Origin: Candidatus Moraniibacteriota bacterium
GTDB taxonomy: Bacteria > Patescibacteriota > Minisyncoccia > Moranbacterales > UBA1568
Assembly (NCBI GenBank): GCA_028688415.1
Contig: JAQTYF010000001.1
Span: forward strand, 10,385 to 74,384
DNA length: 64,000 nucleotides
Direction: 5' to 3'
In this document: piece after piece, positions 14,663 through 50,144 of the stretch
Position numbering within the stretch: position 1 is the first letter of the stretch
Layout: the number at the start of each line of letters is the position of its first letter
The notes under the pieces: generated by a model
The model's input: only the letters and a program-made list of their open reading frames with translations
Database searches by the model: none
Told to the model about the DNA's origin: nothing
Translations under genes and position numbers: made by a program

Positions 14663-14749
14663 TAATATTTTTCTTCTTTTTTGATACAATGACTTGATAC
14701 TCGTGTATTTATGGTACAAGACATGGTGATATAATCAGAATGATCCGAT

Positions 14750-16819
14750 ATGAAAGAGAGACCGATGTACCAACCAAATGACATCTGTATTGTGGGGAGA
14801 GGTTGTGTCTTGCCAGAAGCATCTCGTCCAGAGGAATTCTGGACAAATATCATCTCAGGTACGTGTTCTATCAGGCAGATGCCAGAGGAAAGGTTTGATA
14901 AGCGTCTTTATTTCAGTCGAGAGAGATTGGCAAAAGATAAGTCGTATTCTTCGTACGCTGGTTTCGTCGATGATGAGGACCTGAAGAAAATCAGTAAACG
15001 TCTTGGTCTCGTATTCTCTCGGAATAGGAGATTGGAGATTATGTCTCTTGAGGCCACAAGACAGGCATTCGCTTGTCTGAAGCAGAAAAGAAAAAAAATA
15101 TTAGAGAATACAACTCTCTTTATTGGCTGTATGGAAGCGAGCGATGGATTTTCGCTTGAGAATTTCTTTGCATTCAATAAAAAATTCTTGAAGCAGTATA
15201 TACAAAAAAGTAATATAAAAAGCAAGAAAAAAGCCTTTGATGCGATAGAGCAATATTTCAATCATGAAGTGGATGATGCTTTACAAATCGATGCTGTATT
15301 AACGACATCTGTTATTGATGTCTTGAAGAAAAAATTTCATTTGAAAGGGGAGGGGGTGCTTGTTGATGCGGCTTGTGCTTCATCTCTGGCAGCAATCGAG
15401 AGTGCTGTGGACGCTCTGAAGAATTATGAGACGGATATGGCCGTAACTGGAGGTATAGAAAGTAATTTACGACCCGATTCATTTGTTTTATTCAGTAAAG
15501 TCGGAGCTCTCTCTGAAAAAAGATGTCTTCCTTTTGATGAACAAACTGACGGATTGTCTCAGGGTGAAGGCGCAGTCATTTTTGTTCTTCAAAGGATGGA
15601 AGATGCTTTGCGAGATGGGAATACCATTTATGGCATCATACGATCAGTAGGAAGTGCGAGCGATGGGAATAGTTCGAGCCTCTTTTCCCCGTCTATAGAA
15701 GGGCAACTCTTGTCGTATGATCGAGCCTATCAAAGTATAGACCCACAGAGTATTGATTATATAGAGTGTCATGGTACGGGTACGAAACTTGGAGATAAGA
15801 CAGAAATCAATTCCCTAAACGCTTTTTTCAAAAAGAAAATACCTATTGGATCAGTGAAATCTCTTGTCGGTCATACCAAAGGATCTGCTGGAGCTGTTGG
15901 TCTTCTCAAATGTTTATTATTGATGGAACAAAAGATTATTCCACCTACTCGATACATTACATCATCGATGGCTCCTCAGAATGGAAATGTGTATGTAAAC
16001 AAAAGACCTCTTTCTTTACGTAAAAAATCTAAACATAAGGCCTTGCGTTGTGGAGTGTCTGCTTTTGGATTTGGTAATATCAACTATCATGTTGTTGTTG
16101 AAGAATGGAAAAAGGAAGGAAAAATAAAGTCTCAATTGATGTTGCAGGAACCAGAAACAATAGTGGTTATAGGGGAGGGAATTGCCGTATACAAAGATAT
16201 CGATTCGGATGTATTGGTCAGACAATTCAATATTCCTCCAAAGAGTATTGCCTCTATAGATAAAATTCAATTACTCGCGCTTTCTGCTGTACAGGATGCT
16301 TTCGAAAAATCTCATATAGCTATTGATTCACTCAAGAAAGAATCGGTTTCTGTTCTCTCTGCTTCTATCATCGGTTTGGAGTCTGCTCTTCATTTCTCTT
16401 ACCGTATTATAACGGCTGAGTTTGAGAAAGTATTCGATCCATCCGATGAAAATATGAAAAAGATGTTTGCAAAGTATAAAGACAGATTCCCTGAAGTCAC
16501 TGAGGATACTGGTCCAGGTATTTTAAACAACGTGATCGCAGGAAGAATATGTAACACTTTCGATTTCAAGGGAAAAAATTTCAATGTTGATGCTGATTTC
16601 AATTCTTTTGCATCAGCACTCAAGCTTGCCAAGAGGGAACTTCAGAAAAATGATGGAATAGTAATACTTGTTTTTTGTCGAGAGAAACTTGATACGGAGA
16701 GAAAATATATACTAAGAAAAGACGAGGTGTCATGTCTTTTATTGACGACGCTTCGTCGGGCAAAAGAAGAAAGCTATCCGATCCAAAAATTGATACAATC
16801 AATCCGATATGATGAATAA
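14750..16819 (+). CDS. Beta-ketoacyl synthase (type I PKS/PUFA-synthase-like KS) followed by a truncated, cysteine-less second KS-like N-terminal fragment (CLF-like)
   Basis: KS N-terminus ICIVGRGCVLPEASRPEEFW, active-site Cys in VDAACASSLAAIESA, catalytic His motifs ECHGTGTKLGD and VGHTKGSAGAVG. The C-terminal ~230 aa repeat the KS N-half pattern (IVVIGEGIAV..., GPGILNNVIAGRICNTFDFKGKNFNVDADFNSFASALKLA) with Cys replaced (DADFNS) and no His-His half. Confidence 0.85.
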   Translation: MKERPMYQPNDICIVGRGCVLPEASRPEEFWTNIISGTCSIRQMPEERFDKRLYFSRERLAKDKSYSSYAGFVDDEDLKKISKRLGLVFSRNRRLEIMSLEATRQAFACLKQKRKKILENTTLFIGCMEASDGFSLENFFAFNKKFLKQYIQKSNIKSKKKAFDAIEQYFNHEVDDALQIDAVLTTSVIDVLKKKFHLKGEGVLVDAACASSLAAIESAVDALKNYETDMAVTGGIESNLRPDSFVLFSKVGALSEKRCLPFDEQTDGLSQGEGAVIFVLQRMEDALRDGNTIYGIIRSVGSASDGNSSSLFSPSIEGQLLSYDRAYQSIDPQSIDYIECHGTGTKLGDKTEINSLNAFFKKKIPIGSVKSLVGHTKGSAGAVGLLKCLLLMEQKIIPPTRYITSSMAPQNGNVYVNKRPLSLRKKSKHKALRCGVSAFGFGNINYHVVVEEWKKEGKIKSQLMLQEPETIVVIGEGIAVYKDIDSDVLVRQFNIPPKSIASIDKIQLLALSAVQDAFEKSHIAIDSLKKESVSVLSASIIGLESALHFSYRIITAEFEKVFDPSDENMKKMFAKYKDRFPEVTEDTGPGILNNVIAGRICNTFDFKGKNFNVDADFNSFASALKLAKRELQKNDGIVILVFCREKLDTERKYILRKDEVSCLLLTTLRRAKEESYPIQKLIQSIRYDE

Positions 16820-19800
16820 AAGTCAGGGGTATTATTACGGTACATATACTGTTTCGATGAAGCCATACTCCGGAGTGGATTTTTCGAGACGATGTTTTAT
16901 TTTTGCTGGTCAAGGATCTACTTTTCCAGGTATGTTTCGTGATGAATATCTCAAATCAATCCTTATCCGTGAGAAGTTCGCGCTTGCAGATAGATTGATG
17001 AGACGATTTCATTTACCCAAGATTTCGGACTATATTATGCATCCCGAGAATTTACAGGAAAAGACATTACCAGTAGTATCCAATATTGCTTTGTTTACAT
17101 TAGAAATGGCTCTTTTTGATATGTTACGAGCATCTCAAATCATTCCAGAAAAAGTAACGGGGCATAGTTTTGGCGAATACTCAGCCCTCGTGGCTTCGGG
17201 TGTCGTATCTTTTGAGGAGATGCTTATGATTATTTATCACCGAGATATCTTTTGTCCGAAAGCGCATACGGCAGGCTTCTTGATAGCAGTGAATGCAGAT
17301 GTACGATACATCAAGGCTGTTTTGAAACATCAAAAATATTTCATTAGCAATATCAATAGTCCGAATCAGACGGTTATTGCCGTCGTTCCTGAATGCGTCG
17401 ATGAAATTGTGGATATTTTTCGAGAAAATGAAACGAAATGCAAAGTTCTGTACGGCGTACCACAGCCATATCATTCCCCGTATCTTCTGAGTTCACAGAA
17501 GAAAATTGAGGCATTTCTTCGGAAGAAGCAATTTACTTTTCGAAAACCGACTATACCATTTTTTTCTTCGGTATTGAAAAAGGAAATCAATCAGCAAAAT
17601 TTTCGAAAAAGTGATATTGAGAAGATTCTCTGCACCCAGATTACAACTCAAGTGAACTTTATCTATCAGGTACGATCAATGTATAATTTAGGATGTTTTT
17701 CTTTTTTGGAAATCGGTCCGAAAAAAATATTCTCTGTCTTTGTCGAAGATATTTTGGCAGAGAAAAAACAGTCAGTAAAAACAGAATGTATACAATCTTT
17801 TTTTCAAAAAGAACAGAAAGCGAATACGGCAGGAAAAAATGTGAAAAATGCAAAATTATTCACAATTATATGTAAAACTATTAGAGAGATAACGGGATAT
17901 GAGATAAAAAGTATTCATCCCAATGGAAGATTCCAGGAAGATTTTGGGATAGATTCTATCAAGAGAACGGACATTCTTCTGACTATTTTTCGGAGATTAA
18001 AAATATCTCTCGGTGATGATTTTAATACGTCTCATTTCAAGAGTATTGATGATGTTATCTTATACATTGAAACAATACAAAAAAAATCTTTGTCATCGAT
18101 ACAAGATACCGAGACAAAGAAGGTGCATAAAAAAAGAAAAACAGAATTCCAAAGATATGCTTTTCTTCCAGTAACAGAAGAGCTTTCTATTGCTTCTTCT
18201 CAATGTTCGAGAGACGATCGAGCTAACCTGTTTGTTTTAGACATCGAGAATATTTTTGAATCTGATAGTGTTGTTTTGAAACGATGGTTTTCTTTCGTAA
18301 GGAGGGTAGTTGATAAAAATCAGACATTTACTCTCGTGATACGAGCACAAGATATACAGTGGGAGTATAAAAAAATGTTGTCCCTCTTTCAATTCTTCCG
18401 AGGTTTTTTACAGCCAATCAAACAGAGTACATTTTGTTGTTTGTGCCTTTCATTTGGATCGGAACAGAGTATTGCCGTTTCCAGTCTTGCATCTTTCCTG
18501 AAATCTCTCAAAAGAGAATTTTCAGGAATGTTCTTTCGATATGTTCATAGTGATGCAGTGAAAGATTTTAAGGAGTTTCTTCCCGAGAAAGAGGGAATGA
18601 ATGGAGATGACATTGTATATACACGAGGGAAGAGATATCGCATGCAACCAGTTTTGATACAAAATAATCCAATTATCCCTTTCAAAAAAGATGCTGTCAT
18701 AATAGTGATCGGAGGAGCGAGCGGAATTACTTTTTCTCTCATAAAGCATATCGCAAAAGAGGAAAAGCCGATTTTCTACGTGATCGGTCGTAGGAATGAA
18801 CAAGAAAAGATCATACGCGAACATATACGTATACTCAAAAAATATACGCCACATGTTTTTTATGTTTCATTGGACGCTCGTGACAAAGTTGCTCTGGAGA
18901 AGGTGTGGAAACGTGTTATGCGAGAACAGAAACGAATTGATTATGTAATCAATGGTGCAGGTACAGTCGATATTGATTTTTTTGACCAGAAAACAGAGCT
19001 TTCAATAGAGTCCGAATTTTGTAATAAAGTGGTACCGACATTGAATGTTTTGCAATTGGCTCTGAAATATCATCCAAAAAGAGTTATCAATTTTGCATCA
19101 ATCATCTCGCGGTATGGGAGTGCTGGTCAAAGTATCTATACCGCAGCCAATGCATGGGTGAGTGAGATGACTCAGAAATACGGTAAAGAATTAGAGAAAT
19201 ATGGTTCGGTGGCAACGGCTATTCATTGGCCAGCTTGGGAGAATACGGGTATGACAGCAGAAAAAAGCGTTTCTCAGAAATTGGATGAATACGAAGTGTC
19301 ATTGCTTGATCCAGATGATGCGAATCGATTGTTTGCCCTTGATCTCTCATTGCAGAAGAGTGGACCAGTCTATTATTTGGATGCATCGGATGATAGCGCC
19401 TTATCCTTTCCTTCTAATAATTTCATAAAATACGCACCGATTCTTGGCTCACCCTCTGACTTGTCTTCACTGACTTTTTCTCAGAATATTTTCAGGAAAA
19501 GTTTTCATACGACGAGCGATAAGTGGCTCAGAGATCATAAAATACAGGGAGCAATGTATGTTCCTTTGGCAATTGGCATAGGAATGTTTCTGTGTTTGGG
19601 AAAAATGTATTGGAAGAAAGTTCCTCTATTGAAAAATATTTCTGCACAGAATCCTCTTATAGTAAGAAAGGCTGTGGTGGAATGTACACTCGAACGGAAG
19701 AATGTTGATAATAAGAATACTCTTTCTTTGAAATCAGATGTATCTTATTTTTCCGCCGAAGAAATCAAGGAGGAAAAAGAAGAACAAAAGTTATTTTGTA

Positions 19801-20252
19801 TAATCAAAAAAAATGGTACAAAAATATCAAAAAAGGATATTTACGATTTCTTTGAAAAAGAAACAAGAATATCATTTGGACCCACCTTTCAGACATTGCA
19901 GGCAGTGTGGAAAAATGAAGACGGTTCTTCTTGTGCTGTCATTGATACTGCCAAGCTTCTTCCGATATTTGGAATAGAAACTTTCGACAGACTGATTCAG
20001 TGGATCGATGCTTCTTTTCAGATGCTCGGGCTACAATCTGCGGATCAACAAAGAACTTTTGTGCTTCCGATTAGTATTGATTGGATGAAATATTATGAAG
20101 AGATCGAAAAAACACGCTTTGTATACCCGGTACTTTTGTCTTTTACTCCTACCGAAACAGGTGTGCGTGGTGATGTCTCTGTCGTAAACGAAAAAGGAGA
20201 AGTTATCCTTGAAATGAAGGGCATTTTTCTTCGCAAAGGAAGTTTTTCTTGA
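16809..20252 (+). CDS. Multidomain PKS-like protein: acyltransferase, ACP, ketoreductase and dehydratase (AT-ACP-KR-DH)
   Basis: AT motifs FAGQGSTFPGM and GHSFGEYSA (GHSxG). ACP with DFGIDSIKRTDIL (DSL-type Ser). KR Rossmann IVIGGASGITFS and YTAANAW. DH motif LRDHKIQGAMYVPLA (HxxxGxxxxP). Overlaps the KS gene by 11 nt. Confidence 0.85.
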   Translation: MMNKSQGYYYGTYTVSMKPYSGVDFSRRCFIFAGQGSTFPGMFRDEYLKSILIREKFALADRLMRRFHLPKISDYIMHPENLQEKTLPVVSNIALFTLEMALFDMLRASQIIPEKVTGHSFGEYSALVASGVVSFEEMLMIIYHRDIFCPKAHTAGFLIAVNADVRYIKAVLKHQKYFISNINSPNQTVIAVVPECVDEIVDIFRENETKCKVLYGVPQPYHSPYLLSSQKKIEAFLRKKQFTFRKPTIPFFSSVLKKEINQQNFRKSDIEKILCTQITTQVNFIYQVRSMYNLGCFSFLEIGPKKIFSVFVEDILAEKKQSVKTECIQSFFQKEQKANTAGKNVKNAKLFTIICKTIREITGYEIKSIHPNGRFQEDFGIDSIKRTDILLTIFRRLKISLGDDFNTSHFKSIDDVILYIETIQKKSLSSIQDTETKKVHKKRKTEFQRYAFLPVTEELSIASSQCSRDDRANLFVLDIENIFESDSVVLKRWFSFVRRVVDKNQTFTLVIRAQDIQWEYKKMLSLFQFFRGFLQPIKQSTFCCLCLSFGSEQSIAVSSLASFLKSLKREFSGMFFRYVHSDAVKDFKEFLPEKEGMNGDDIVYTRGKRYRMQPVLIQNNPIIPFKKDAVIIVIGGASGITFSLIKHIAKEEKPIFYVIGRRNEQEKIIREHIRILKKYTPHVFYVSLDARDKVALEKVWKRVMREQKRIDYVINGAGTVDIDFFDQKTELSIESEFCNKVVPTLNVLQLALKYHPKRVINFASIISRYGSAGQSIYTAANAWVSEMTQKYGKELEKYGSVATAIHWPAWENTGMTAEKSVSQKLDEYEVSLLDPDDANRLFALDLSLQKSGPVYYLDASDDSALSFPSNNFIKYAPILGSPSDLSSLTFSQNIFRKSFHTTSDKWLRDHKIQGAMYVPLAIGIGMFLCLGKMYWKKVPLLKNISAQNPLIVRKAVVECTLERKNVDNKNTLSLKSDVSYFSAEEIKEEKEEQKLFCIIKKNGTKISKKDIYDFFEKETRISFGPTFQTLQAVWKNEDGSSCAVIDTAKLLPIFGIETFDRLIQWIDASFQMLGLQSADQQRTFVLPISIDWMKYYEEIEKTRFVYPVLLSFTPTETGVRGDVSVVNEKGEVILEMKGIFLRKGSFS

Positions 20253-20884
20253 AAAAAGATATGAGAAACCTCTTTTCATCACGAGGAAATATGAATCTAC
20301 TGCGTTGTCTCGCTCAGCCAACGAGAATATTTCGTCATCAGGGATGGGATATAGAGAAGCAACGTTCGATAGCTGATTTTTTGGTATACATTCTTTCGGG
20401 AGAAGAACTCAAGCATTCGGAGACCGGAAGACCGATAATCAACGACTTCACCGATGTGTCGATTTCACATAAACCGCACTATATCGTTGTCGCTACGATC
20501 CAGTCTCCGTATAAGATTGGAATTGATATTGAATACCTCTTGACGGATATACAAACAGTGTTCTTTATCGGTCCAGTAATCAAAAAGAACGAACAGTTTG
20601 TACTGGATTGTTTCTGCAGAGAAAATAACCTTTCCTATTCTTCTGGAGTAATCGCTTTTTGGTCTCTCAAAGAATCTTTCTTCAAATGTCTTGATGTTGA
20701 TATGAAACCTGCTCAGATTTTTGTATCGCGGATTTATAATGAGAAAGTATTTTTTTCTTTTTCAAACTCTATCAAAGAATGTATGAAGGAAAGAAAAATA
20801 CAGTTTGAATATGCTACAATAGAAATTCGAGGGGAATATGTCCTGACACAGACGATTATGTGTGAGATGAAAAAATATGAATAA
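20249..20884 (+). CDS. 4'-phosphopantetheinyl transferase (Sfp/EntD type)
   Basis: PPTase motifs IGIDIEYL (GxDxE) and WSLKESFFKCL (WxxKEa..K). 4-nt overlap with the upstream gene. Confidence 0.75.
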   Translation: MKKDMRNLFSSRGNMNLLRCLAQPTRIFRHQGWDIEKQRSIADFLVYILSGEELKHSETGRPIINDFTDVSISHKPHYIVVATIQSPYKIGIDIEYLLTDIQTVFFIGPVIKKNEQFVLDCFCRENNLSYSSGVIAFWSLKESFFKCLDVDMKPAQIFVSRIYNEKVFFSFSNSIKECMKERKIQFEYATIEIRGEYVLTQTIMCEMKKYE

Positions 20885-21905
20885 AAATATGCCGTCACAA
20901 TATCGTTGGCAAACACTCGATATTATCAAAACTATCGGATGTCTTGGAGCTATTTTTAGCCATATATTGATATGGCAATTTGGCACCACTCATCGTGGTG
21001 TAGGTATAGATCTGTATGATATGAATGCTGTTTCTTGGCCGATACTTACTTTTTGTTTCGTGATAGTGCACATTCTCTTTCTTTCAGCAGGAGCGTCTTT
21101 TTATTTTTATATTGAGAAATATCACCCTTCAATGCGTCAAGTTGGTACTCGATTGATACCTATTATCCTTCTGGGATTTCTTTTTGGTCTCAATTATCAC
21201 CCGTTTATTCTGTATTGGAATGTTTTTTTCTTTTATACTCTTTCTATCCTCACTCTTTTTTTCTTACAGCGTTTTTTCGGATATACGATTATTTTTCTTG
21301 TCACTTCACTGACGCTTTTTCTCACACCATTGCTCCGCATGTTTTTCGATGATGGATTTTTGGAAAATTATTTTATCACCTTTTTCTTTACTGATGCACA
21401 GAATACTATCAATTTCTATCCATTTTTCCCGTTCTTTTCTCTGATCGGATTTGGATTTCTCACGAGTCATATCTATTACACGTATCAGAAAAAGAAGTTA
21501 TTCATACGAAGCCTCGCCTCCGGGACGTTGGCATTATTCTTCCTCACCCTAATCCTAGAACGAGTGGATGTCTCTGATATCTTTGGCGTAACAGCCCATC
21601 TCCCTATACGTTTTCTTCTCCTAACCATTGCTTTTTTTGTTGTAATTCTCTCTCTCATCGAGCTGATTGCTCATGGCAGAATGATAACGAAAAAATACCA
21701 CCCATTGGTGATTATCGGACGACATATTCTCCCCGTGTATGTCTTGACCCTTTTGAGCTCACTAGTTTTCTTGAATTTTTTCCAACGACTGAGTTTTTAT
21801 AACAAAGAGAGTATAGGAGTTTTTCTTTTTTCTCTTTTCATAACATTTGATATTGCGTATGCGATAGCGGTGATACTCACATATCGGAACAGGCAGAATG
21901 CCTAG
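20877..21905 (+). CDS. Polytopic membrane protein, probable acyltransferase-3 (OafA/OatA-like) family
   Basis: About 10 TM helices. N-terminal R-x3-LD-x2-K-x-I-G-x3-A-x4-H pattern (RWQTLDIIKTIGCLGAIFSHI) typical of AT3-family membrane O-acyltransferases. Overlaps the PPTase stop. Confidence 0.45.
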   Translation: MNKNMPSQYRWQTLDIIKTIGCLGAIFSHILIWQFGTTHRGVGIDLYDMNAVSWPILTFCFVIVHILFLSAGASFYFYIEKYHPSMRQVGTRLIPIILLGFLFGLNYHPFILYWNVFFFYTLSILTLFFLQRFFGYTIIFLVTSLTLFLTPLLRMFFDDGFLENYFITFFFTDAQNTINFYPFFPFFSLIGFGFLTSHIYYTYQKKKLFIRSLASGTLALFFLTLILERVDVSDIFGVTAHLPIRFLLLTIAFFVVILSLIELIAHGRMITKKYHPLVIIGRHILPVYVLTLLSSLVFLNFFQRLSFYNKESIGVFLFSLFITFDIAYAIAVILTYRNRQNA

Positions 21906-21960
21906 TGCACATTTTCTTTGTTTGGTATATACTATACATGTATTCGTAACAGCAATCTTT

Positions 21961-23013
21961 ATGAAAAAAAGTTTCTTTGCCATTTTCTTTGTATTGGTTT
22001 TTGCAGTAAGCATAGGTATGCCTCAGCCAGTGCATGCTGGTGGTGTCGTCGATGCAATCGTGGATGCGGTGACGAATGTTGTTGCGATAGCCGCTGGTGT
22101 CGTACAGGGCTCATTGTCACTTATTAGTGGGGGGAGTTTCTCTGATGGATATGCTCAGGGATTCTGCAGTGTATCGAGTAATGGGAATGGGATATTCAGT
22201 CCTGGAGGGTGTCAGAATGCGGGAGGGCAAATTGTTTCGTCTACAGGAGTTCCATGTGTAGCGAATTACAATGTTGCATGTATTGCCACTAATGCTTGTG
22301 GAACAACTAATAGCGGTACATATGATTGTGTAGGTACGTGTACTGCTGTCGCCCCACCAATGCCCCCTAATCAAGGAGCTTCTTGTGATTCTGCTCAAAA
22401 TAATTGTGGATCGAAAAATGTAGGCACTATGAACTGTGGAGTATGTTCTGCTGTTGCTCCTGCTGATGCGTGGTTTTATCCTGGAGTTGCTTGTCTCTCC
22501 GCTCCGAACCAATGTGGTATGCAAAATGCCAATGGAACGTATAATTGCTTGGGACAATGTGCTGGGTCAACCTCTCCTTCACCAGCTCTCTGCTCCTCAT
22601 ACAATACCAATAAACCAACAGTATCACTGACAGCAAATCCGCTCGTACGTACATCGGCAGGATCGACCACTCTCACATGGACCGTAGGCAATGCAACGAG
22701 TTGTCGTCATTCAAGTAGTGATACCTCTATCTGGTCTGATGCACCAATAACCCCCGCTAACGATTCAGCTAACGTCTCTGTTACAGCTCCTACTACCTCT
22801 TTCACCATCTCCTGTTCGAATGCCTCAGGAGTAACCAACAGAACGGTATATGTCAAAGTTCAGAATGATTGTTCTCCTCTCGATTGTGGAGGCACAGCAA
22901 AATCTGATCAAGTGTGTGTAGGGAAACGATACAATGACATAAAAGGTTGTGGCGTGAATAACTGTACCGGTACCCGTTATTGTGACTTCAATTGGAAAGA
23001 GACGGCGTTGTAA
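21961..23013 (+). CDS. Secreted cysteine-rich repeat protein (signal peptide, then three or more CG..N.GTY.C.G.C.AVAP modules and an S/T-rich C-terminal domain). Start taken at MKKSFF (21961).
   Basis: Signal-peptide-like MKKSFFAIFFVLVFAVSIGMPQPVHA. Repeats CGTTNSGTYDCVGTCTAVAP / CGSKNVGTMNCGVCSAVAP / CGMQNANGTYNCLGQCAGS. Confidence 0.55.
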   Translation: MKKSFFAIFFVLVFAVSIGMPQPVHAGGVVDAIVDAVTNVVAIAAGVVQGSLSLISGGSFSDGYAQGFCSVSSNGNGIFSPGGCQNAGGQIVSSTGVPCVANYNVACIATNACGTTNSGTYDCVGTCTAVAPPMPPNQGASCDSAQNNCGSKNVGTMNCGVCSAVAPADAWFYPGVACLSAPNQCGMQNANGTYNCLGQCAGSTSPSPALCSSYNTNKPTVSLTANPLVRTSAGSTTLTWTVGNATSCRHSSSDTSIWSDAPITPANDSANVSVTAPTTSFTISCSNASGVTNRTVYVKVQNDCSPLDCGGTAKSDQVCVGKRYNDIKGCGVNNCTGTRYCDFNWKETAL

Positions 23014-42965: not shown

Positions 42966-44603
42966 TTATTCTTTGTCTGGAAAAACATATCGTCCTGGTG
43001 CAATCAATCGTTTTGGATCAATTGATGTCTTGAGTATACTGGCGAGATGTGTAGAGCTAGGAGCGAGATCTTTGAGAAGATGCATTGATGAAAGACTGAG
43101 TCTATAGGGGATGTACCCCATTTTTTGCCCTGCTTGAAAAAGTTCTTCGTAACAACGCTTGGCACGCTCTGCATCCTCTGTGTCATTGAGTCGGAAGAGG
43201 ATAGGAACAGTCACGTCAAAGCAACGCGAGGAGAGACTAGTAAATGTCATAAGTGGCTCGATACCATTTTTTTCACAGATGTCCTGAATCATGCGAGCAC
43301 AAGCGCGGACATCAGAGGATTTGAAAGGGACCAGAGGAGAATACCAGTACAAACCGCAACCGTCACGAGCGGGATCGAGTGGTTTGCCTGTAGGCATATC
43401 AACACCCGATTTCCAGTAGGCGAGAGGGAGAGCGACCTCATTTGGTTTCCCGTGAAGTATTTCAAAAAGAGAAAGGAGAGAATCAATAGTACCAGAGAGA
43501 TGTCTTCCAAAATGTCCTGGAACAAGTTTGGCAAAAGAAGATGCTTGACGTATGAGGGCAGGTGAGAGAAATGTGAGATGTGAGACATGAGGACTGAGTG
43601 TTTCTTTGAGTATAGTCTTGGCTCCTTTGACGAGAGCCTTGTGTCCATAGATAGCACCGATACCAGTCCATGCAGTCACCTGATCAGCGTGCGCCATCAT
43701 ATCGATAATTTTTTGAGGAACAATAGATCCTATCATCGTACTCGTTTCCGGATAGGCTTCTTGCATAGAGAGTACTCGTCTCGCATTCATAATATTGAAT
43801 GATCCAGTGACTGTTCCTGTCAGACTGAGAGATTTCTGAAGAGCCTCGATGGCTTTTTCGAGGTCTGCTTCCTCATTCACACGGAAAAAAACGAGCTCGA
43901 CTTTCTCAGGAACAGGAGCGAGGACAAGCGTCATAGATGTAACAATGCCAAAATTTCCTTGTGAGAAGAGTCCATCGAGATACGGACCGATACCCCATTT
44001 GTGAAGACGATTGACTTCTACACCACCCATTTCATCGAGTGCTCGACGATAGAGTGATCCGTCTGGCAGTACTGCCTCGAGTGAAGTGATAGCAGAGAAA
44101 TGGTCTGCATAAGGAGTGATACCGAAACCTCTTTCGAGTGCATTGCCGACGATACTGCACGTAGGACCTCCTCCGTGTACTGGTACAAGAAACTGAGTTT
44201 TCTTTTTTCGAAGAAAATTATAGAGGTCTTTTTGTGTAACGCCTGGTTCGAGAGTGATGATACCAAGTACTGGATCGAAATTCGAGATTTCTTTCATGAG
44301 AGAGAGGTCTATGACAACGGCTTGTTCTGGAGGAAGACTGTTTCCGTAGCCCCAATTTTTCCCTCCACTCACAGGATAAACTGGAATGTTAAATTTTTGA
44401 GCAATCTCGACCACTCGAATTATATCGGCTGTTTTTTTACAGACGAGTGCCCCGAGGACAGTATAAGTTGTCGTAAAGGTTGTTTTCCCATATTTTTCTC
44501 TACTTTGTTCTTGATCGAGAACATTTCTTTTCCCAAGAATTTTCTGCCAATCAATGAAGGCTCTGTGCAATTCTTTTTCAAAAGATGTGAGATGAAACCC
44601 CAT
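42966..44603 (-). CDS. FAD-linked oxidase (FAD_binding_4 / PCMH-type flavoprotein dehydrogenase)
   Basis: FAD-binding N-terminal domain (ADIIRVVEIAQKFNIPVYPVSGGKNWGYGNS). 545 aa. Confidence 0.65.
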   Translation of the reverse strand: MGFHLTSFEKELHRAFIDWQKILGKRNVLDQEQSREKYGKTTFTTTYTVLGALVCKKTADIIRVVEIAQKFNIPVYPVSGGKNWGYGNSLPPEQAVVIDLSLMKEISNFDPVLGIITLEPGVTQKDLYNFLRKKKTQFLVPVHGGGPTCSIVGNALERGFGITPYADHFSAITSLEAVLPDGSLYRRALDEMGGVEVNRLHKWGIGPYLDGLFSQGNFGIVTSMTLVLAPVPEKVELVFFRVNEEADLEKAIEALQKSLSLTGTVTGSFNIMNARRVLSMQEAYPETSTMIGSIVPQKIIDMMAHADQVTAWTGIGAIYGHKALVKGAKTILKETLSPHVSHLTFLSPALIRQASSFAKLVPGHFGRHLSGTIDSLLSLFEILHGKPNEVALPLAYWKSGVDMPTGKPLDPARDGCGLYWYSPLVPFKSSDVRACARMIQDICEKNGIEPLMTFTSLSSRCFDVTVPILFRLNDTEDAERAKRCYEELFQAGQKMGYIPYRLSLSSMHLLKDLAPSSTHLASILKTSIDPKRLIAPGRYVFPDKE

Positions 44604-44818
44604 ATGTTTATTGAAAGTATTAAAAAGTATAGAGTACTTCTTTCTCTCTCATAGTATCATATATCGATAGAGAAGGAGAAACAAGTTTACTGTGTTATCG
44701 GGCAAGTGTCTTGTTTTGAAATGAGTTTAGTTTTAGAAATAAGGAAAACTTGCTTTATAAGAGGTTTTATCATACTCTATAAGAGTAAAAAACGAACATA
44801 AATGAAGAAAGGAAGTCT

Positions 44819-45046
44819 ATGGAAAAGTTGTTCTTTACCTTGCAAGAAAGGTTTCCTGAAACGAAAGAAGAAGTTCTTCGTTTTGCTCTGAATGTTTTTT
44901 TGTATCAACAAGAAAAGCAAACAGGAAACAAAGCCTCAGTCGACGATGCAACCGCTTTTTTTCGTCGATTCAATTCGAGCAATGACATTGCGTTATGGCT
45001 TCTCGATATTGATGTTGCCGTTCTCAGGGAAATAACCAAAAAATAA
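44819..45046 (+). CDS. Hypothetical small protein (75 aa)
   Basis: ORF with reasonable context upstream of the GGDEF-like gene. No motif. Confidence 0.3.
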   Translation: MEKLFFTLQERFPETKEEVLRFALNVFLYQQEKQTGNKASVDDATAFFRRFNSSNDIALWLLDIDVAVLREITKK

Positions 45047-45093
45047 GAGCGCTTCTGTTTTACACAACAGGAACGCTCTTTTTTCGAAAAAAT

Positions 45094-46245
45094 ATGAGTA
45101 ACGAATGGAAGCAAGGAGGGGAATATCCAATCGAAAGAATATCGAATGAACAAGAAGTTTCTCAAGATTCTCTTTCGAGTCTCATCGCACGACAATCAAA
45201 TCCTGAGCTTCTCAAAAAATACGAGGAGAGTTTACGTGATGTACAAAAAGTTCTTGAGGAAAATAATCGATTGCGACGTGAAGGAGAGGAACAGAAGAGA
45301 ACTATTCATGAACTCTCCTACGACAGTATTACAGACTTGAAGATTCGTTCATTATTTTATAAGCAGTTGAATACCCTCGTATCAGAGGAAATTGCTACTC
45401 TGTTCGGCGAAGATATCGCCATGTGGGAGACGCTTCCTCTTGATCAGCTCACTGAAAGAATTTTTAATATTGATATCTCAAACAGTGAAAACACATCCCT
45501 TGCCTTGCTCATGGGTGATGTCGCTTATCTTTCGCTCGCCAATACGAGTAATCATGCTCTCGGTGATGAGTTGTTGAAGAATATCGGGAAAGCTGGCAAG
45601 ACAACAAGCGAACTCTTTCCGGAATCAGCAGAGTTTTTTCGGTATGGTGGAGATGAAATAGTAGGTGTTCTCCGTGCAGAGAGTGAATCGGGTGTCAAAA
45701 ATATCGCTGACTCTTTTGAATCTGAGGTTTCTCAAACTCCATTTGCACATTTAGAAACACTTGGTATCACTCCCCATCTTCATATTGATATTGGAACATC
45801 TCGTTTTTTTGAGGGATTCTCTGCTTTCCGGAATCTCTTAGTGACCATACAAGAAGAAAATAAGAAACGTCAGTTAGCAGGAGAAGATCCTCTCGATATT
45901 CCTTGTGATGATCGCAGGAAAGTGCTCATCGATATGTGGCTCGGTATTGCTGATGAGAAATCTATCCTGCGAAAAGCGGAGAGACGTCTGCCAACACTCA
46001 AATTTTATAAAGAAAACACGCCTGATGTCTACACGGGTATTATCGGTTCTATGAGAAAAGGGGCTCTCAATGTCACTGATGAAGAACTTGATGTCTTGAG
46101 CAATGATCTTGCCTCCATCAGGCAATTTATTGTAGAAAAGAGGCTCCTCACAAAAACAGAAAGTGAGAAAACCTTATCGAGACGCAATGCTCTTGTGAAC
46201 GGAATTATCTATCGTATTGCAACAGACGAATTTCTTTCTGAGTAA
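45094..46245 (+). CDS. GGDEF-domain protein with degenerate signature (RYGGDEI) and N-terminal coiled coil
   Basis: GGDEF-like blocks DSITDLKIRSLFYKQL (D.lTgL.NR), LALLMGDVAYLSLANTSNHALGDELL (llLDlDhFK.iND..GH..GD.vL) and FFRYGGDEIVGVL (R.GGDEF..ll). Confidence 0.55.
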   Translation: MSNEWKQGGEYPIERISNEQEVSQDSLSSLIARQSNPELLKKYEESLRDVQKVLEENNRLRREGEEQKRTIHELSYDSITDLKIRSLFYKQLNTLVSEEIATLFGEDIAMWETLPLDQLTERIFNIDISNSENTSLALLMGDVAYLSLANTSNHALGDELLKNIGKAGKTTSELFPESAEFFRYGGDEIVGVLRAESESGVKNIADSFESEVSQTPFAHLETLGITPHLHIDIGTSRFFEGFSAFRNLLVTIQEENKKRQLAGEDPLDIPCDDRRKVLIDMWLGIADEKSILRKAERRLPTLKFYKENTPDVYTGIIGSMRKGALNVTDEELDVLSNDLASIRQFIVEKRLLTKTESEKTLSRRNALVNGIIYRIATDEFLSE

Positions 46246-46320
46246 TTTCTGAAGAAGGAAAAATGTTATCCTCTGTCTGGACAAAAAATGATTCTTTCGT
46301 TACAATAACTTCATTCGTTA

Positions 46321-46394
46321 TGGGCCGTTAGCTCAGTTGGTTAGAGCACCGCATTTGCAATGCGGGGGTCGTCGGTTCGAATCCGACACGGTCC
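46321..46394 (+). tRNA. tRNA-Ala (anticodon TGC), with G3:U70
   Basis: GGGCCGTTAGCTCAGTTGGTTAGAGCACCGCATTTGCAATGCGGGGGTCGTCGGTTCGAATCCGACACGGTCCA. Confidence 0.9.
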
Positions 46395-46492
46395 ACTCTG
46401 TTTTCCTCTTGATTTTTTTTTCATTTGTGATATCATTTGAAATACCATTCTATGAATAGGAGGTGTTTTGGATTGAGAACAAGGGAAAATAT

Positions 46493-46566
46493 GGGTGATT
46501 AGCTCAGTTGGTTAGAGCGCTACACTGATAATGTAGAGGTCCCAAGTTCGAATCTTGGATCACCCA
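46493..46566 (+). tRNA. tRNA-Ile (anticodon GAT)
   Basis: GGGTGATTAGCTCAGTTGGTTAGAGCGCTACACTGATAATGTAGAGGTCCCAAGTTCGAATCTTGGATCACCCA. Confidence 0.9.
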
Positions 46567-46692
46567 CCCACGAAAAATGTGAAACACATATCGTGGCAAG
46601 ACGGGGATTGCTCGGCTTGTCGAAGAGTATGCTGTATGATGATTGAGTAAGGTTTATAGTTTGCTACGTGGCGAACAGAGTGAGTTTTACGT

Positions 46693-46766
46693 AGCGGGGT
46701 AGAGCAGTCTGGCAGCTCGTCTGGCTCATAACCAGAAGGTCGGTGGTTCGAATCCACCCCCCGCAA
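46693..46766 (+). tRNA. Initiator tRNA-fMet (anticodon CAT)
   Basis: AGCGGGGTAGAGCAGTCTGGCAGCTCGTCTGGCTCATAACCAGAAGGTCGGTGGTTCGAATCCACCCCCCGCAA. Near-identity to E. coli tRNA-fMet, including the unpaired 1:72 position. Confidence 0.85.
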
Positions 46767-47125
46767 CACACGAAAGAATTGAGTGAGTAAGGAGGAAGAC
46801 ACAAACGATTTTGTGTCTGTGTGGATGAGAAGGGATGTTTTCTTGAAAAGAAAAATCCCAGGCTCCTCGAACGAATCCACCCCCCGCAACACACGAAAGA
46901 ATTGAGTGAGTAAGGAGGAAGACACAAACGATTTTGTATCTGTGTGGATGAGAAGGGATGTTTTCTTGAAAAGAAAAATCCCAGGCTCCTCGAACGAATC
47001 CACCCCCCGCAACAAACGGAACAAAGTGAAGTGCAGAGAGGAGGGAATGAGCGAACTGCTTCGCTCATGTGTGGATGAGAAGGGTCGAAGTTCCGCGACG
47101 ACCCAGGCTTCTCGAACGAATCCAC
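46749..47125 (+). repeat. Tandem array (about 3.1 copies of a 123-bp unit). Every unit begins with the 3' end of tRNA-fMet (CGAATCCACCCCCCGCAACA). Copies 1 and 2 are almost identical; copy 3 diverged internally.
   Basis: Period 123 bp: CGAATCCAC at 46749, 46872, 46995 and 47117. Unit = tRNA 3' end + CACGAAAGAATTGAGTGAGTAAGGAGGAAGACACAAACGATTTTGTGTCTGTGTGGATGAGAAGGGATGTTTTCTTGAAAAGAAAAATCCCAGGCTCCT. Confidence 0.8.
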
Positions 47126-47188
47126 TTGAGTAGTGAAGAAAAATATAATGAAGAGCGAGTGTTCATCGTTTTGTTATGAACTATCTCT

Positions 47189-47262
47189 GGCAGGGTAGCT
47201 CAGTTGGTTAGAGCATAGCCTTCATAAGGCTGGGGTCGCGAGTTCGAATCTCGCCCCTGCTA
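47189..47262 (+). tRNA. tRNA-Met (anticodon CAT; elongator or possibly tRNA-Ile2/lysidine type)
   Basis: GGCAGGGTAGCTCAGTTGGTTAGAGCATAGCCTTCATAAGGCTGGGGTCGCGAGTTCGAATCTCGCCCCTGCTA. Confidence 0.75.
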
Positions 47263-47283
47263 CACAGAAACAAGAAAATACAC

Positions 47284-47357
47284 GGGGGCGTAGCTCAGCT
47301 GGTTAGAGCGACTGCCTGTCACGCAGTAGGTCGCCGGTTCGAGTCCGGTCGCTCCCG
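47284..47357 (+). tRNA. tRNA-Asp (anticodon GTC)
   Basis: GGGGGCGTAGCTCAGCTGGTTAGAGCGACTGCCTGTCACGCAGTAGGTCGCCGGTTCGAGTCCGGTCGCTCCCG. Confidence 0.85.
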
Positions 47358-47361
47358 CAGA

Positions 47362-47389
47362 GAAAAACACCCGCAAGGGTGTTTTTTTG
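47362..47389 (+). terminator. Rho-independent terminator ACACCC-GCAA-GGGTGT + T7 after the tRNA cluster
   Basis: 6-bp GC-rich stem, tetraloop, TTTTTTT. Confidence 0.7.
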
Positions 47390-47505
47390 TGGGCGATTGG
47401 CTCGAACGAGGAAGGGGGTCGGGGAAACGGGAGTTTCACCGTTGGCGGAGAGCAGGACTTTGTCCGCTGAGAACGGAGGCGTTCTCAGAGCGAAGCTGTT
47501 CGATT

Positions 47506-47524
47506 GTCCGGTCGCTCCCGCAGA
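47506..47524 (+). repeat. Direct repeat of the tRNA-Asp 3' end (GTCCGGTCGCTCCCGCAGA; extended match TTCGAKTGTCCGGTCGCTCCCGCAGA), an att-like scar 146 bp downstream of the tRNA
   Basis: Identical 19-mer at 47343-47361 (inside tRNA-Asp) and 47506-47524. The intervening ~145 bp are GC-rich compared with the rest of the window. Confidence 0.7.
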
Positions 47525-47556
47525 ATAAAGAACTTGGCCCTTGTGGCTGAGTTTTT

Positions 47557-48195
47557 TTGTATAAAAATTCTTTTGATGATACATTGAAAATCAATATGAA
47601 ACACGTATTCTCACAATTAGAAAAAAAGAGAAACACAAACACTCAATCACGTGAGCAGTTCCTTCTTCATGTTTGTTGCGCACCGTGTAGTATCGCGGTG
47701 ATTGATGAACTGGCGACAGAGTATGATCTCGTCGTGCTTTTCTATAATCCCAACATCCATCCGGAAGAGGAATATCTAAAACGGAAACGAGAAGTAGTCC
47801 GTGTGTGTGAAGAATGGAAAGTGCCGATGATCGATCATGATTATGATATTGAAAAATGGGAAAAAGATATACGAGGATTGGAAAATGAACCAGAAGGAGG
47901 GCTCCGTTGTGTCTCGTGTATCAGTATGCGACTTCTCCATACTGCAGAAATAGCTAAAGAAAAAAACATAGAGCTATTTGGTACGACGCTCACGATGGGA
48001 CGAAACAAGAGAGAGATAGTCATCACGCCTCTTGGAAAATCGGCAGGGGAGAAATATGGTAGAGAATATTATGTCGAAGACTGGAAAAAGAAAGGACGCG
48101 AAATAAAAGCACGGGCTATGGTGAAAGAACGGGACATCTATCGTCAAACGTACTGCGGATGCAAGTACTCGATACGTGTCCAGAGAGAGGAATAA
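47557..48195 (+). CDS. queH: Epoxyqueuosine reductase QueH (DUF208)
   Basis: Conserved HVCCAPCS motif and C-terminal CGCKYS. 212 aa. Confidence 0.75.
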   Translation: MYKNSFDDTLKINMKHVFSQLEKKRNTNTQSREQFLLHVCCAPCSIAVIDELATEYDLVVLFYNPNIHPEEEYLKRKREVVRVCEEWKVPMIDHDYDIEKWEKDIRGLENEPEGGLRCVSCISMRLLHTAEIAKEKNIELFGTTLTMGRNKREIVITPLGKSAGEKYGREYYVEDWKKKGREIKARAMVKERDIYRQTYCGCKYSIRVQREE

Positions 48196-48220
48196 GAAAA
48201 AATAACGAGAAATGAAAAAA

Positions 48221-48297
48221 GAATCTTCAAAGAATTTTTAGGAAACCATTGGGCGAAACTGCTTCGGACGGGTTTATCTAAAATTTTTTGAAGATTC
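48221..48297. ncRNA. Structured element, copy 2: stem GAATCTTCAAAGAATTTTTA / TAAAATTTTTTGAAGATTC enclosing the same conserved core GGAAACCATTGGGCGAAACTGCTTCGGACGGGTTTATC
   Basis: Core identical to copy 1 except 1 nt. The stem sequence is unrelated to copy 1 but remains complementary (covariation). Confidence 0.55.
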
Positions 48298-48330
48298 TTT
48301 TTATTCTATATAAGTAAAATACTATGGATT

Positions 48331-49950
48331 TTGTTTTTGTTGCGAAGTACGATGAGACAGGATAAGATAGGAATACATTTATTGATAAATATTATGACAC
48401 AGAGTGAAGCGCTGGCTCTCCTCAAAACAGGAGCAAATGTCTTCCTTACGGGTGAGGCGGGATCAGGAAAGACCTATACTATCAATCAATATACCGACTA
48501 TCTTCGTTCTCATGAGATCGATTTTGCTGTGACGGCTTCGACAGGTATCGCTGCGACACATATCCATGGTATGACGATACATTCGTGGAGTGGTATCGGT
48601 GTCCATCAAGAAGCGGACGAAGATGAACTCAAACACATTGCAGAGAATCGCTATGTCGCGAAACGTATCAAAAGAGCCAAGGTACTCATCATTGATGAGG
48701 TATCGATGCTTGATGGAAAAGTTTTGACACTCGTCGAACGGGTGTGTCGCAAGGCGCGAAAACTACGATTGCCGTTTGGAGGACTGCAGGTGGTGCTTGT
48801 GGGAGATTTTTTTCAGTTGCCACCAATAGCTAAAAAAGAAACAGCAATAGAATTTGCTTTTGATTCAGATGCATGGCAGGGATCGATGCCAATCGTGTGT
48901 TATCTCACGGAACAACACCGTCAGGAAGATAGTAAATTTTTGGATATTCTTTCGGCTATTCGGAATAATACGTTTGATGAAATGCACTTTGAAAGTTTGA
49001 GCGAACGGATTATATCACACGAAGAATTGCCGGACGATATGACGCGTCTGTTTTCTCATAATACCAATGTCGATACGATCAATACGAAAGAATTGCAAAA
49101 ACTCCCAGGGAAAACAAAACTCTTTGTGATGGCAGCACGTGGCCCAGAAACACTGACCGATGCACTCATCCGCGGGTGTCTCTCTCCGGAACGTCTCGAA
49201 CTCAAAGAGGGAGCAGCGGTGATGTTTACCAAGAACAATGCGAATCAGGGTTTCGTCAACGGAACACTCGGTACCGTCATCGGGTTTGATACGACAACTC
49301 ATTATCCGATTGTGAGAACATCGAGCGGGACACATATCGAGACAGAGCCAATGGAGTGGACGATTGCAGAGGGGGATGAAATATTTGCCAAGATCACTCA
49401 GATACCACTCCGTCTCGCCTGGGCAATGACGATTCACAAGAGCCAGGGAGTGAGTCTTGATGCTGCAGTAATCGACCTCTCACAAACGTTCGAATATGGT
49501 CAGGGATATGTTGCTCTGTCACGAGTACGTACACTCTCAGGTATCCATCTCCTCGGTGTGAACGCACGAGCGTTTCAGGTCCATCCACTCGTTTCTGAAA
49601 AAGATGAACAATTTCGTCGTACTTCTGAGACTGCGAGAGAAGAATATCGACAATTTTCGAAAGAGAGAGTCGAAGAAATGGAAAAGAATTTTATTGTGTT
49701 GTGCGAAGGAAAACATCAGATCAAAAAACAGAAGAGTGTGAAGAAAAAAAAGACAGTATCAGTCGGAAAATCATTGGAGGAAATCCGCGAGAAACATCCG
49801 AAAGCATACGCGAAATGGACCACTGAGGAAGATGAAAAACTACGAAAATTATGGAACAAAGGAACGCAAGTCCTCGCACTCACCGAGGTATTTGGCCGTA
49901 AAAAAGGAGCTATCACATCACGTCTCAAAAAATTATTGCTTCTCCACTAG
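48331..49950 (+). CDS. Pif1/RecD-family ATP-dependent DNA helicase (AAA_30 / UvrD_C_2 type) with a basic C-terminal tail. Start may be the downstream MTQSEALALL (48394).
   Basis: Walker A LTGEAGSGKTYTI, Walker B VLIIDEVSMLD, motif GDFFQLPP, C-terminal helicase motif TIHKSQGVSLD. Confidence 0.75.
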   Translation: MFLLRSTMRQDKIGIHLLINIMTQSEALALLKTGANVFLTGEAGSGKTYTINQYTDYLRSHEIDFAVTASTGIAATHIHGMTIHSWSGIGVHQEADEDELKHIAENRYVAKRIKRAKVLIIDEVSMLDGKVLTLVERVCRKARKLRLPFGGLQVVLVGDFFQLPPIAKKETAIEFAFDSDAWQGSMPIVCYLTEQHRQEDSKFLDILSAIRNNTFDEMHFESLSERIISHEELPDDMTRLFSHNTNVDTINTKELQKLPGKTKLFVMAARGPETLTDALIRGCLSPERLELKEGAAVMFTKNNANQGFVNGTLGTVIGFDTTTHYPIVRTSSGTHIETEPMEWTIAEGDEIFAKITQIPLRLAWAMTIHKSQGVSLDAAVIDLSQTFEYGQGYVALSRVRTLSGIHLLGVNARAFQVHPLVSEKDEQFRRTSETAREEYRQFSKERVEEMEKNFIVLCEGKHQIKKQKSVKKKKTVSVGKSLEEIREKHPKAYAKWTTEEDEKLRKLWNKGTQVLALTEVFGRKKGAITSRLKKLLLLH

Positions 49951-49994
49951 AGAACGGATGAAAAAGAATAGTTTTTTCTACTTTTCTCTCAATA

Positions 49995-50144
49995 CCCAAA
50001 AGAATATTTTGTTGGTTGCTCCACTTGTTTGAGACGGCTTTCTTTCTTCTAAAAATTTCCTATGGATGCCGTAGAGTGAGGGAATATTTTTAGCAAAGAA
50101 AGAAGGCTTTCGAGGCTGGAGCAGAAACAAAAGATTGCTTTTGG
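49995..50144 (+). mobile_element. MITE-like element, family 2 copy 1 (about 150 bp). TIRs CCCAAAAGAATATTTTGTT / AACAAAAGATTGCTTTTGGG.
   Basis: Near-identical direct copy at 62693-62843. Terminal sequences shared with family 1. Followed by a TTGACA-17-TATGCT promoter-like sequence (50190-50218). Confidence 0.65.

Follow-up and report, generated by a model that had tools for sequence, protein, structure and literature searches.

Organization of the tRNA-fMet locus

The window analysed here was a stretch of 64,000 nucleotides from a Candidatus Moraniibacteriota genome (assembly GCA_028688415.1, contig JAQTYF010000001.1, positions 10,385 to 74,384), and all positions given below are counted from its first letter. 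Five co-oriented tRNA genes were identified as a cluster by ARAGORN and Rfam, namely Ala(TGC) at 46322, Ile(GAT) at 46492, Met(CAT) at 46693, Met(CAT) at 47189 and Asp(GTC) at 47284. CCA was encoded by none of the five, and the cluster was flanked by a GGDEF-like gene on one side and by queH/pif1 on the other. Directly behind the first tRNA-Met gene lay a tandem array of units that repeat the 3' end of this tRNA, then came the other two tRNA genes and then QueH. The tRNA at 46693 was read as the initiator (tRNA-fMet) from its A1 x A72 mismatch, its A11:U24 pair and its near-identity to the body of E. coli tRNA-fMet, and its 3' end was placed at 46766/7 by ARAGORN and Rfam. The features of the locus were as follows.

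46693 to 46766, plus strand: initiator tRNA-Met(CAT) gene without encoded CCA (ARAGORN; Rfam tRNA, 61.7 bits; sequence)
46767 to 46889, plus strand: unit 1, in the register starting after the discriminator base (minimum free energy (MFE) fold, alignment; 113.6 bits with R1, a covariance model built from seven units)
46890 to 47012, plus strand: unit 2, 122/123 identical to unit 1 (108.7 bits with R1)
47013 to 47126, plus strand: unit 3, a diverged subtype (116.8 bits with R1; independently assembled in contig L005)
47127 to 47188, plus strand: degenerate partial extra unit and spacer before the next tRNA (comparison by eye, without an alignment tool)
47189 to 47262, plus strand: downstream tRNA-Met(CAT), elongator Met or Ile2 type, in the same conserved cluster and orientation
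47284 to 47357, plus strand: tRNA-Asp(GTC), in the same conserved cluster and orientation as tRNA-fMet

A preliminary description of this stretch had reported a 123-bp array that re-uses the tRNA 3' end, and the repeat is real. The 20-mer CGAATCCACCCCCCGCAACA occurred exactly three times, at 46749, 46872 and 46995, with a period of 123 nt (0 expected, from 100 shuffles), and Tandem Repeats Finder returned a period of 123 for 46749-47018 with 2.2 copies, 98% matches and a score of 526. The first copy consisted of the last 18 nt of the genuine tRNA-fMet (46749-46766) plus CA, as had been stated, and on either side of the units stood direct copies of the tRNA 3' end, the repeat boundary falling in the T loop. 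The further statement that every unit carries the same tail was right for units 1 and 2, which differed by 1 mismatch in 123 nt (99% identity), and wrong for unit 3 (46995-47117 in the 20-mer register), a diverged homologue whose hairpin sequences differ between the conserved blocks TGTGTGGATGAGAAGGG and CCCAGGCTYCTCGAACGAATCCAC. Of the "3+ units" counted earlier, three were present; the supposed fourth was a 9-nt stub CGAATCCAC at 47118-47126 and nothing more. The sole difference of unit 2 was a G-to-A change at 46936. Units 1 and 2 would be a recent local duplication in view of their 99% identity, and near-identical units together with partial extra terminal copies form a pattern typical of unequal crossing-over.

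The existence of the array is secure. Unit 3, the stub and the downstream tRNAs were reproduced in a Logan contig from a separate run (L005, SRR22315503); this contig starts at the end of unit 2, so the count of near-identical units (two) was not independently confirmed. Both of the flanking genes are carried by a Logan contig of 0.2-1 Mb. In favour of an assembly artefact, in the array or in its copy number, it can be said that short-read Logan contigs break at the identical units, and that in another species one NCBI scaffold has an N gap within the array while two more assemblies hold one and two units. Against it stand the independent assembly of unit 3 and the stub, the one base that distinguishes units 1 and 2, and the homologous units held by many independent assemblies, and the chance of such an artefact is very small.

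Structure of the units

Unit 1 begins with an A/G-rich linker of 30 nt (46767-46796) containing AAGGAGG, which is followed by a perfect 9-bp hairpin with a 4-nt loop (hp1, 46797-46818). After GU/GA comes the 5' strand of a closing helix, GTGGAT (46821-46826), with GAG-AA, and then a GGG...CCC hairpin (hp2, 46832-46859), which exists in an A/U-rich and a G/C-rich form. The unit continues with AGG-CTC, a 9-nt bulge and the 3' strand of the closing helix, ATCCAC (46875-46880), and ends in a copy of the acceptor 3' strand with the discriminator, CCCCCGCAA (46881-46889). As RNA, this 3' end (AUCCAC-CCCCCGCA-A) is a copy of the end of the tRNA T loop, the T-stem 3' strand, the acceptor 3' strand and the discriminator. 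GUGGAU is complementary to AUCCAC and GAG to CUC, and GUGGAU/AUCCAC plus GAGAAGGG was observed in all units of the window. The substitution in unit 2 makes a C.A mismatch in hp1. In unit 3, hp1 was ATGAGCGAA-CTGC-TTCGCTCAT at 47047-47068, followed by the motif GTGGATGAGAAGGG at 47071-47084, a GC-type hp2 and CCCAGGCTTCTCGAACGAATCCAC at 47102-47125; the acceptor-strand copy was missing and the unit ended in the 9-nt stub. The sequence behind it (47127-47188) was homologous, by eye, to the linker start of the unit 1 type and to the tail of the array in the closest relative, L077.

The MFE fold of unit 1 alone recovered hp1, the closing helix and hp2 as a three-way arrangement (z -2.2). When the whole array was folded, GUGGAU paired with the upstream AUCCAC, the downstream AUCCAC being also a possible partner.

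Several other identities were considered for the units and rejected. Reading-frame conservation across units was not observed, and the 5-nt length difference in hp2 shifts the frame. Short open reading frames (ORFs) exist on both strands, but the conserved downstream block is read in different frames, and neither start codons nor Shine-Dalgarno spacing were conserved; minus-strand ORFs of 153-154 aa pass antisense through the tRNA. Rfam at permissive thresholds gave only tRNAs and noise, with no match to a group I intron, ribozyme, tmRNA or Y-RNA. Group I introns are reported to interrupt the anticodon loop of a Patescibacteria tRNA gene (PMC13011429); here no Intron_gpI match was obtained, the tRNA was intact and the units lay 3' of it. 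A CRISPR array was rejected for lack of spacers, and a ToxI-like repeat RNA of a type III toxin-antitoxin system for lack of a toxin gene, the array being followed by two tRNAs and QueH. A tRNA or pseudogene cloverleaf was also rejected, only the five genuine tRNAs of the cluster being called by ARAGORN and the Rfam tRNA model, and hp1 was not a generic terminator of this genome, as the other hairpins with 4-nt loops in the window lacked the motif.

Homologous units in related genomes

Homologues were collected by searching metagenomes and 185,579 species genomes for two conserved blocks, and loci were obtained via homologues of DprA and QueH. A first scan of contigs with the pattern GATGAGAAGGGN{8,38}CCCAGGCTYCTCG gave 0 matches, this pattern being too strict. 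At least seven other lineages of Patescibacteria carried homologous units, in about 1 to 2 copies and immediately behind the same tRNA-fMet. The unit-bearing loci were L011/L020/L074 and L023/26/27/30/71 (several of them named Candidatus Moranbacteria), L058 (Moraniibacteriota), L077 (DprA 88% identical), L083-85 (RIFCSPHIGHO2_01_FULL_54_31) and L075, from a more distant metagenome-assembled genome (MAG). In these relatives the units lay in a conserved Ala-Ile-fMet-Met-Asp cluster flanked by pif1/queH and dprA. The core motifs were invariant across lineages in which DprA is only about 70% identical.

A comparison of this locus in relatives had been proposed in the preliminary description, and the copy number did vary between genomes, with values of about 1.1, 1.3, 2 and 3.1 (the window). 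No unit was found at the locus in L006, L080 and L087, and only a truncated, decayed relic in L079. Behind the last tRNA-end copy, every genome showed the first 10-36 nt of the unit once more, the mark of a tandem repeat whose terminal copy is partial. Two subtypes of the unit stood in opposite order in the window and in L077, and the parts of the unit (linker, hp1 and hp2 types) were combined as a mosaic across loci. The locus is recombinationally active; relatives differ in copy number, and so do assemblies of a single species. Exact-motif copies numbered one per genome in four of the five genomes matched among the 185,579 scanned. In L023 and L058 a terminator followed the unit, ahead of tRNA-Met.

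Small insertions were also observed around the tRNA genes of these relatives. A palindrome, CTG(C/T)CTGCCG(A/G)CAGGCAGG, was present at the unit 3' ends of L058 and L083 and after tRNA-Ala in L082-85, with one insertion point (after GAATCC/GGTTC) shared by several tRNA-end copies and a pseudo tRNA-Ala 3' half; pseudo-tRNAs of the relatives also held other palindromes, of the CCCGCCTAGGCGGG type. Orphan 5' halves of tRNA-fMet (and tRNA-Ile), interrupted by short GC-rich palindromes, lay upstream in L077 (c.2611-2980) and in L082-L085, and were followed by an ORF of 85-93 aa for a GIY-YIG protein, which reads into the intact tRNA up to the UAA of the anticodon loop. An orphan 5' half with a GIY-YIG ORF looks like an insertion of the homing-endonuclease type that regenerates the tRNA 5' half; in L079 and L080 the orphan halves occurred without the ORF.

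Conservation of the secondary structure

From ten distinct units, RNAalifold independently predicted hp1, the closing helix, the GAG/CUC pairing and the base of hp2. In a count of 21 pairs over the ten units, 96.6% of the cells were paired, compared with 24-49% when the partners were slid by 1-3 columns. Seven of the nine pairs of hp1 showed double-sided changes with pairing kept, and the observed covariation score was reached in 0 of 500 shuffles. The model R1 recovered all members at 87-127 bits and the relic of L079 at 46 bits. The structure of the unit is under selection and was conserved by compensatory change. The tail of about 100 bp, explained earlier as an attachment (att) scar, is instead a conserved structured module with compensatory substitutions.

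The closing helix follows the tRNA as well. The tRNA-fMet of L075 differs in its T stem (CCCAC), and the closing helix of the unit there is GGUGGGAU/AUCCCACC, with GGUGGGAU as its 5' strand. Cognate closing duplexes averaged -15.4 kcal/mol and non-cognate ones -9.2, a gain in stability of ~6 kcal/mol, and the G.U wobbles of the closing helices, read by eye, sit on the tRNA-sense strand. The helix tracks whichever gene the element trails, which may be tRNA-fMet, tRNA-Asp or tRNA-His, and tRNA-Tyr in E. coli.

Related elements behind other genes

A second, separate element of similar architecture, not mentioned in the preliminary description, was observed behind tRNA-Asp in the same window, with the following features.

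47361 to 47388, plus strand: terminator-like hairpin and U run after tRNA-Asp, with a 12-bp stem AGAAAAACACCC/GGGTGTTTTTTT (by eye; not called by a consensus scan)
47389 to 47520, plus strand: "Asp trailer", the second related element (fold z -2.2; repeat comparison)
47530 to 47556, plus strand: second terminator-like hairpin and T run, closing the Asp trailer (by eye; QueH starts at 47557)

The first hairpin holds the position of hp1 in the fMet units. In the Asp trailer, GTGGGCGATTGG (47389-47400) pairs with CCGGTCGCTCCC (47508-47519), which are copied T-stem and acceptor 3' strands of tRNA-Asp, giving a 12-bp acceptor plus T minihelix around a structured insert of ~105 nt, with the discriminator G at 47520. 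An Asp-linked element in L083 was judged by eye to be homologous to it, and another in L087 scored 27 bits with R1.

The core GGAUGAGAAGGG - hairpin - CCCAGGCU was also present in L049, where it trails tRNA-His and forms a 13-bp helix with the copied 3' end of that tRNA, and behind tRNA-Asp in L075. A "solo" element with the same core and a perfect 12-bp helix occurred in L052 with no adjacent tRNA; this copy (2317-2455) lay directly upstream of a tRNA_bind/CsaA-like gene. The MAG that contains L052 and L075 (CAYLJX01) held at least three copies of the core, one fMet-linked, one Asp-linked and one solo. Its label, Bdellovibrionales, may be wrong, as its five-tRNA cluster resembles that of Moranbacteria.

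R1 also matched just downstream of topA in L080 (7286-7560) and L086 (6320-6600). The insert there was 143 nt long, started with an A/G-rich GGAGG stretch and contained a 9-bp hairpin with a CUGC loop. The final 57 nt of the topA ORF stood on either side of it, as two copies that were 100% identical in L080 and decayed in L086. The insert also included 12 nt that repeat, in inverted form, the sequence across the left edge of the repeat, and was otherwise unrelated to topA. A duplication of upstream topA sequence was rejected as the source of the insert, the BLASTN match being this 12-nt inverted stretch only. A shorter version of the topA 3'-end duplication and insert was seen in L079 at about 7320-7400.

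Comparison with RtT RNA and other systems

The array has its nearest precedent in E. coli, where repeats of 178 bp follow tyrT. These RtT repeats have been on record since about 1980, still without a mechanism, and to our knowledge RtT has been treated as an enterobacterial curiosity tied to tRNA-Tyr. According to the summary in 10.1101/2024.07.17.603846, rtT RNA is a discrete RNA from the transcript of the E. coli tRNA operon. A literature search on RtT and on structured, tRNA-linked RNAs of candidate phyla gave only a passing mention of rttR and the paper on anticodon-loop group I introns.

Rfam placed four copies of RtT (RF00391; gene rttR) in the E. coli tyrT/tyrV locus. As in the window, the E. 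coli units are arranged in tandem directly downstream of a tRNA and on the same strand, in arrays of about 3.1 copies that end in a partial unit. They end in the tRNA-Tyr 3' end AAUCCUUCCCCCACCACCA, as the window units end in the T-arm/acceptor 3' strand of tRNA-fMet, and their closing helix pairs GGGAAGGAU with AUCCUUCCC of the copied tRNA end in the consensus structure of Rfam. The motif GGAUGAGAA stands immediately inside the closing helix, the next bases in E. coli being GAGAA, and both have an interior hairpin with a GCGAAGCG-type block ahead of AAUCC. The host, however, is a Patescibacterium and not an enterobacterium, and the partner is the initiator tRNA (Asp and His in relatives) instead of tRNA-Tyr. 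The window unit is 123 nt long compared with 178 in E. coli, has a single interior hairpin where E. coli has a multi-stem interior (two inner hairpins inside a second helix), carries an extra 9-bp linker hairpin and encodes no CCA. The long forms in L052, L075 and L049 have larger interiors than the window units, and the RF00391 model aligned end-to-end with L052 at 24.1 bits (E 0.008), below the gathering threshold of 45 bits; it gave no match on the Asp unit of L075. The window array is RtT-like in design and is not filed as a member of RF00391.

Three other systems share parts of this design. Attachment sites in tRNA genes (attL/attR, with integrase-less tandem accretion) also show direct repeats of the tRNA 3' end beginning in the T loop, a replacement 3' end that keeps the gene intact, and possible tandem arrays, whereas the window units are without integrase, cargo or a phage or plasmid counterpart and have ~100 nt of conserved structured sequence. 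A second comparison is with recombination sites that act as a folded single strand, the attP of CTX-phage/IMEX and integron attC. As in these, the inverted segment, spacer and target copy of the unit could fold so as to imitate the target duplex, the structure is kept as the sequence varies, and products are tandem; the spacer in the window has strongly conserved motifs, no Xer- or IntI-type recombinase and no dif or attC consensus was seen, without a search aimed at these, and the likeness is resemblance only. Finally, in tRNA-like 3' processing modules (mascRNA, the MALAT1 3' end) an acceptor/T-arm mimic could recruit tRNA-processing enzymes. Those modules are eukaryotic or viral, and the mimic in the window is literally the 3' strand of the neighbouring tRNA, with a long arm in place of the T loop.

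Interpretation of the array

The explanation that we favour, with moderate confidence, is that the array is an RtT-like structured RNA module trailing the tRNA and amplified locally by unequal recombination. The non-coding module of ~120 nt has the orientation of tRNA-fMet and would be co-transcribed with it, since no terminator separates the two. Its parts are, in order, the A/G-rich linker, the 9-bp hairpin, a long irregular arm and the acceptor 3' strand copy with the discriminator, and the arm is closed by pairing of GUGGAU-GAG with the copied T-loop/T-stem 3' strand of the tRNA. The tRNA-like end could be recognised by RNase Z or RNase P, perhaps also by the CCA-adding enzyme, a read-through transcript could be cut at the copied ends, and unit-length small RNAs might be released, by analogy with E. 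coli rtT RNA. The length of the array would shift through unequal recombination between the repeated tRNA ends.

Several points weigh against this explanation. That the units are transcribed and the copied tRNA ends cleaved is an inference, and homology to RtT, as opposed to convergence, is unproven at the sequence level: the RF00391 model had no match on 46760-47535 at E<=10, nor on 44000-50000, our own covariance model did not detect E. coli RtT (4.7 bits), and local alignment to RtT was limited to about 10 nt and a weak 3' block. The element is dispensable, being absent or decayed in the four relatives named above (L006, L080 and L087; L079). The acceptor-strand copy of the terminal unit is often degenerate or interrupted (unit 3 of the window, L011, L058, L083), which argues against a strict need for that copy. 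A terminator-like hairpin lies between the tRNA and the element in Asp- and His-linked relatives, and the 57-nt duplication of topA coding sequence points to an insertion or duplication mechanism at the DNA level that RNA function alone does not explain.

The preliminary description had taken the repeats for serial attL/attR scars, left at the tRNA 3' end by integration and excision of phages or integrative and conjugative elements with tyrosine integrases. Such scars would account for direct repeats of a tRNA 3' end with a boundary in the T loop, which is reportedly the classic crossover region of integrases, and for the tandem pile-up. The earlier statement that no integrase is present in the window was supported, since no integrase, recombinase or transposase was found by Pfam among its ORFs of at least 180 aa (six of them without a Pfam match), nor among the called genes flanking any related locus. 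A search for the unit beside an integrase or attP, as had been advised, yielded homologues, none of them near an integrase, and the unit was absent from IMG/VR (pattern scans; two matches, both in coding sequence, were dismissed as chance) and from INPHARED phages and PLSDB plasmids (BLASTN). In addition, the sequence between the repeats is conserved and structured, RtT has this pattern in E. coli with no prophage present, and the near-identity of units 1 and 2 indicates local duplication. Serial scars of this kind are very improbable. What remains of the earlier interpretation are the tRNA-end repeats, the active recombination, the orphan tRNA-fMet 5' halves with upstream GIY-YIG genes in relatives, and the topA 3'-end duplication. 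The main rival of the favoured explanation, unlikely but still alive, is a mobile one: the units would be miniature integrative elements that are not autonomous, each a module of 100-250 nt without a protein that inserts at a gene 3' end and supplies a replacement end, an inverted "guide-like" segment complementary to the target would let the folded strand mimic the target duplex, and the window array would result from successive insertions and local duplication. The same architecture behind tRNA-fMet, Asp, His and Ala and the protein gene topA speaks for this, as do the 57-nt topA repeat around a 143-nt insert with its 12-nt inverted copy, the patchy presence among close relatives, the mosaic unit parts, the two old subtypes in opposite order in the window and L077, the three or more paralogous copies at separate loci of one MAG, and a neighbourhood that attracts GIY-YIG genes and small GC palindromes. 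It is opposed by the lack of a recombinase or integrase near any copy and of matches in viral or plasmid collections, and by the low number of exact-motif copies, which does not fit a high-copy element. The fMet unit also keeps the same locus across deep divergence, with compensatory change that tracks the T stem, as in constrained vertical inheritance, and we know of no mechanism that mobilises elements with different targets.

Two further readings were considered. The unit could be a cis-acting RNA of the tRNA operon, an insulator, attenuator or processing platform controlling read-through into tRNA-Met and tRNA-Asp, in which GUGGAU is offered two partners, the real tRNA T stem or the decoy copy. 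Rfam does list RtT as "Cis-reg", GUGGAU can pair with an upstream or a downstream AUCCAC (the whole-array fold picks the upstream one), and the terminator of L023 and L058 lies between unit and tRNA-Met; but the solo element of L052 has no adjacent tRNA, unit-less relatives retain the same tRNA cluster, and tandem amplification is left unexplained, so that a cis-acting role seems improbable. The array could also be neutral debris, decaying pseudo-tRNA copies after a tandem duplication of tRNA-fMet and its trailer. From hp2 on, the unit does match the tRNA by position, with hp2 as the anticodon arm, AGGCU as the variable loop AGGUC, then 5 nt, a 7-nt loop AACGAAU and CCACC; arrays end in partial copies, and decay is seen in some lineages (L079). 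The covariation disfavours this origin: seven hp1 pairs change on both sides and are still paired. The core motifs are invariant despite the divergence of DprA, the closing helix is re-matched to the different T stem of L075, and the same core stands behind other tRNAs, which leaves debris quite improbable.

The RtT architecture was found here in Patescibacteria, where it is associated with initiator, Asp and His tRNAs and one protein gene and its closing helix re-matches each partner. This suggests that the RtT-like architecture is a general design, either ancient or recurrent. We give a small chance to a broader proposal, that RtT-type elements, those of E. coli included, are a widespread unrecognised class of tiny protein-less colonisers of gene 3' ends, that is, nucleic-acid-guided miniature insertion elements. 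If this were true, such elements would regenerate the displaced gene end and recognise their target through an internal complementary segment, at tRNAs and at least at topA, and the window array would be a pile-up of two old subtypes with a recent duplication. With the comparative set it can be tested where the constraint lies within the element, whether the copied gene end is there for RNA processing or for insertion, and whether the elements move. For annotation, the result is a warning against taking every repeated tRNA 3' end for a prophage att site.

Other features of the window and its relatives

The spacer upstream of tRNA-fMet (46600-46692, …CTTGTCGAAGAGTATGCTGTATGATGATTGAG…) was conserved in L058 and may contain the tRNA-fMet promoter, for which it is a candidate region. 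The entire tRNA cluster of L006 was inverted relative to queH. A gene for a FAD-binding protein between dprA and the GGDEF-like gene was intact in the window (42966-44603), was represented in L006 only by tblastn fragments (2876-3288) beside the inverted tRNA cluster, and was absent in L077.

Elsewhere in the window, a tRNA-Leu(CAG) gene was followed by an RNase J gene (10126-12493), and no tRNA-end copy was found downstream of this tRNA. A polyketide/fatty-acid-synthase-like cluster was located at 12570-23013, comprising an AMP-binding enzyme, a ketosynthase, a 1147-aa AT-KR-DH protein and a phosphopantetheinyl transferase, and such a cluster seems unusual for a Patescibacteria genome.

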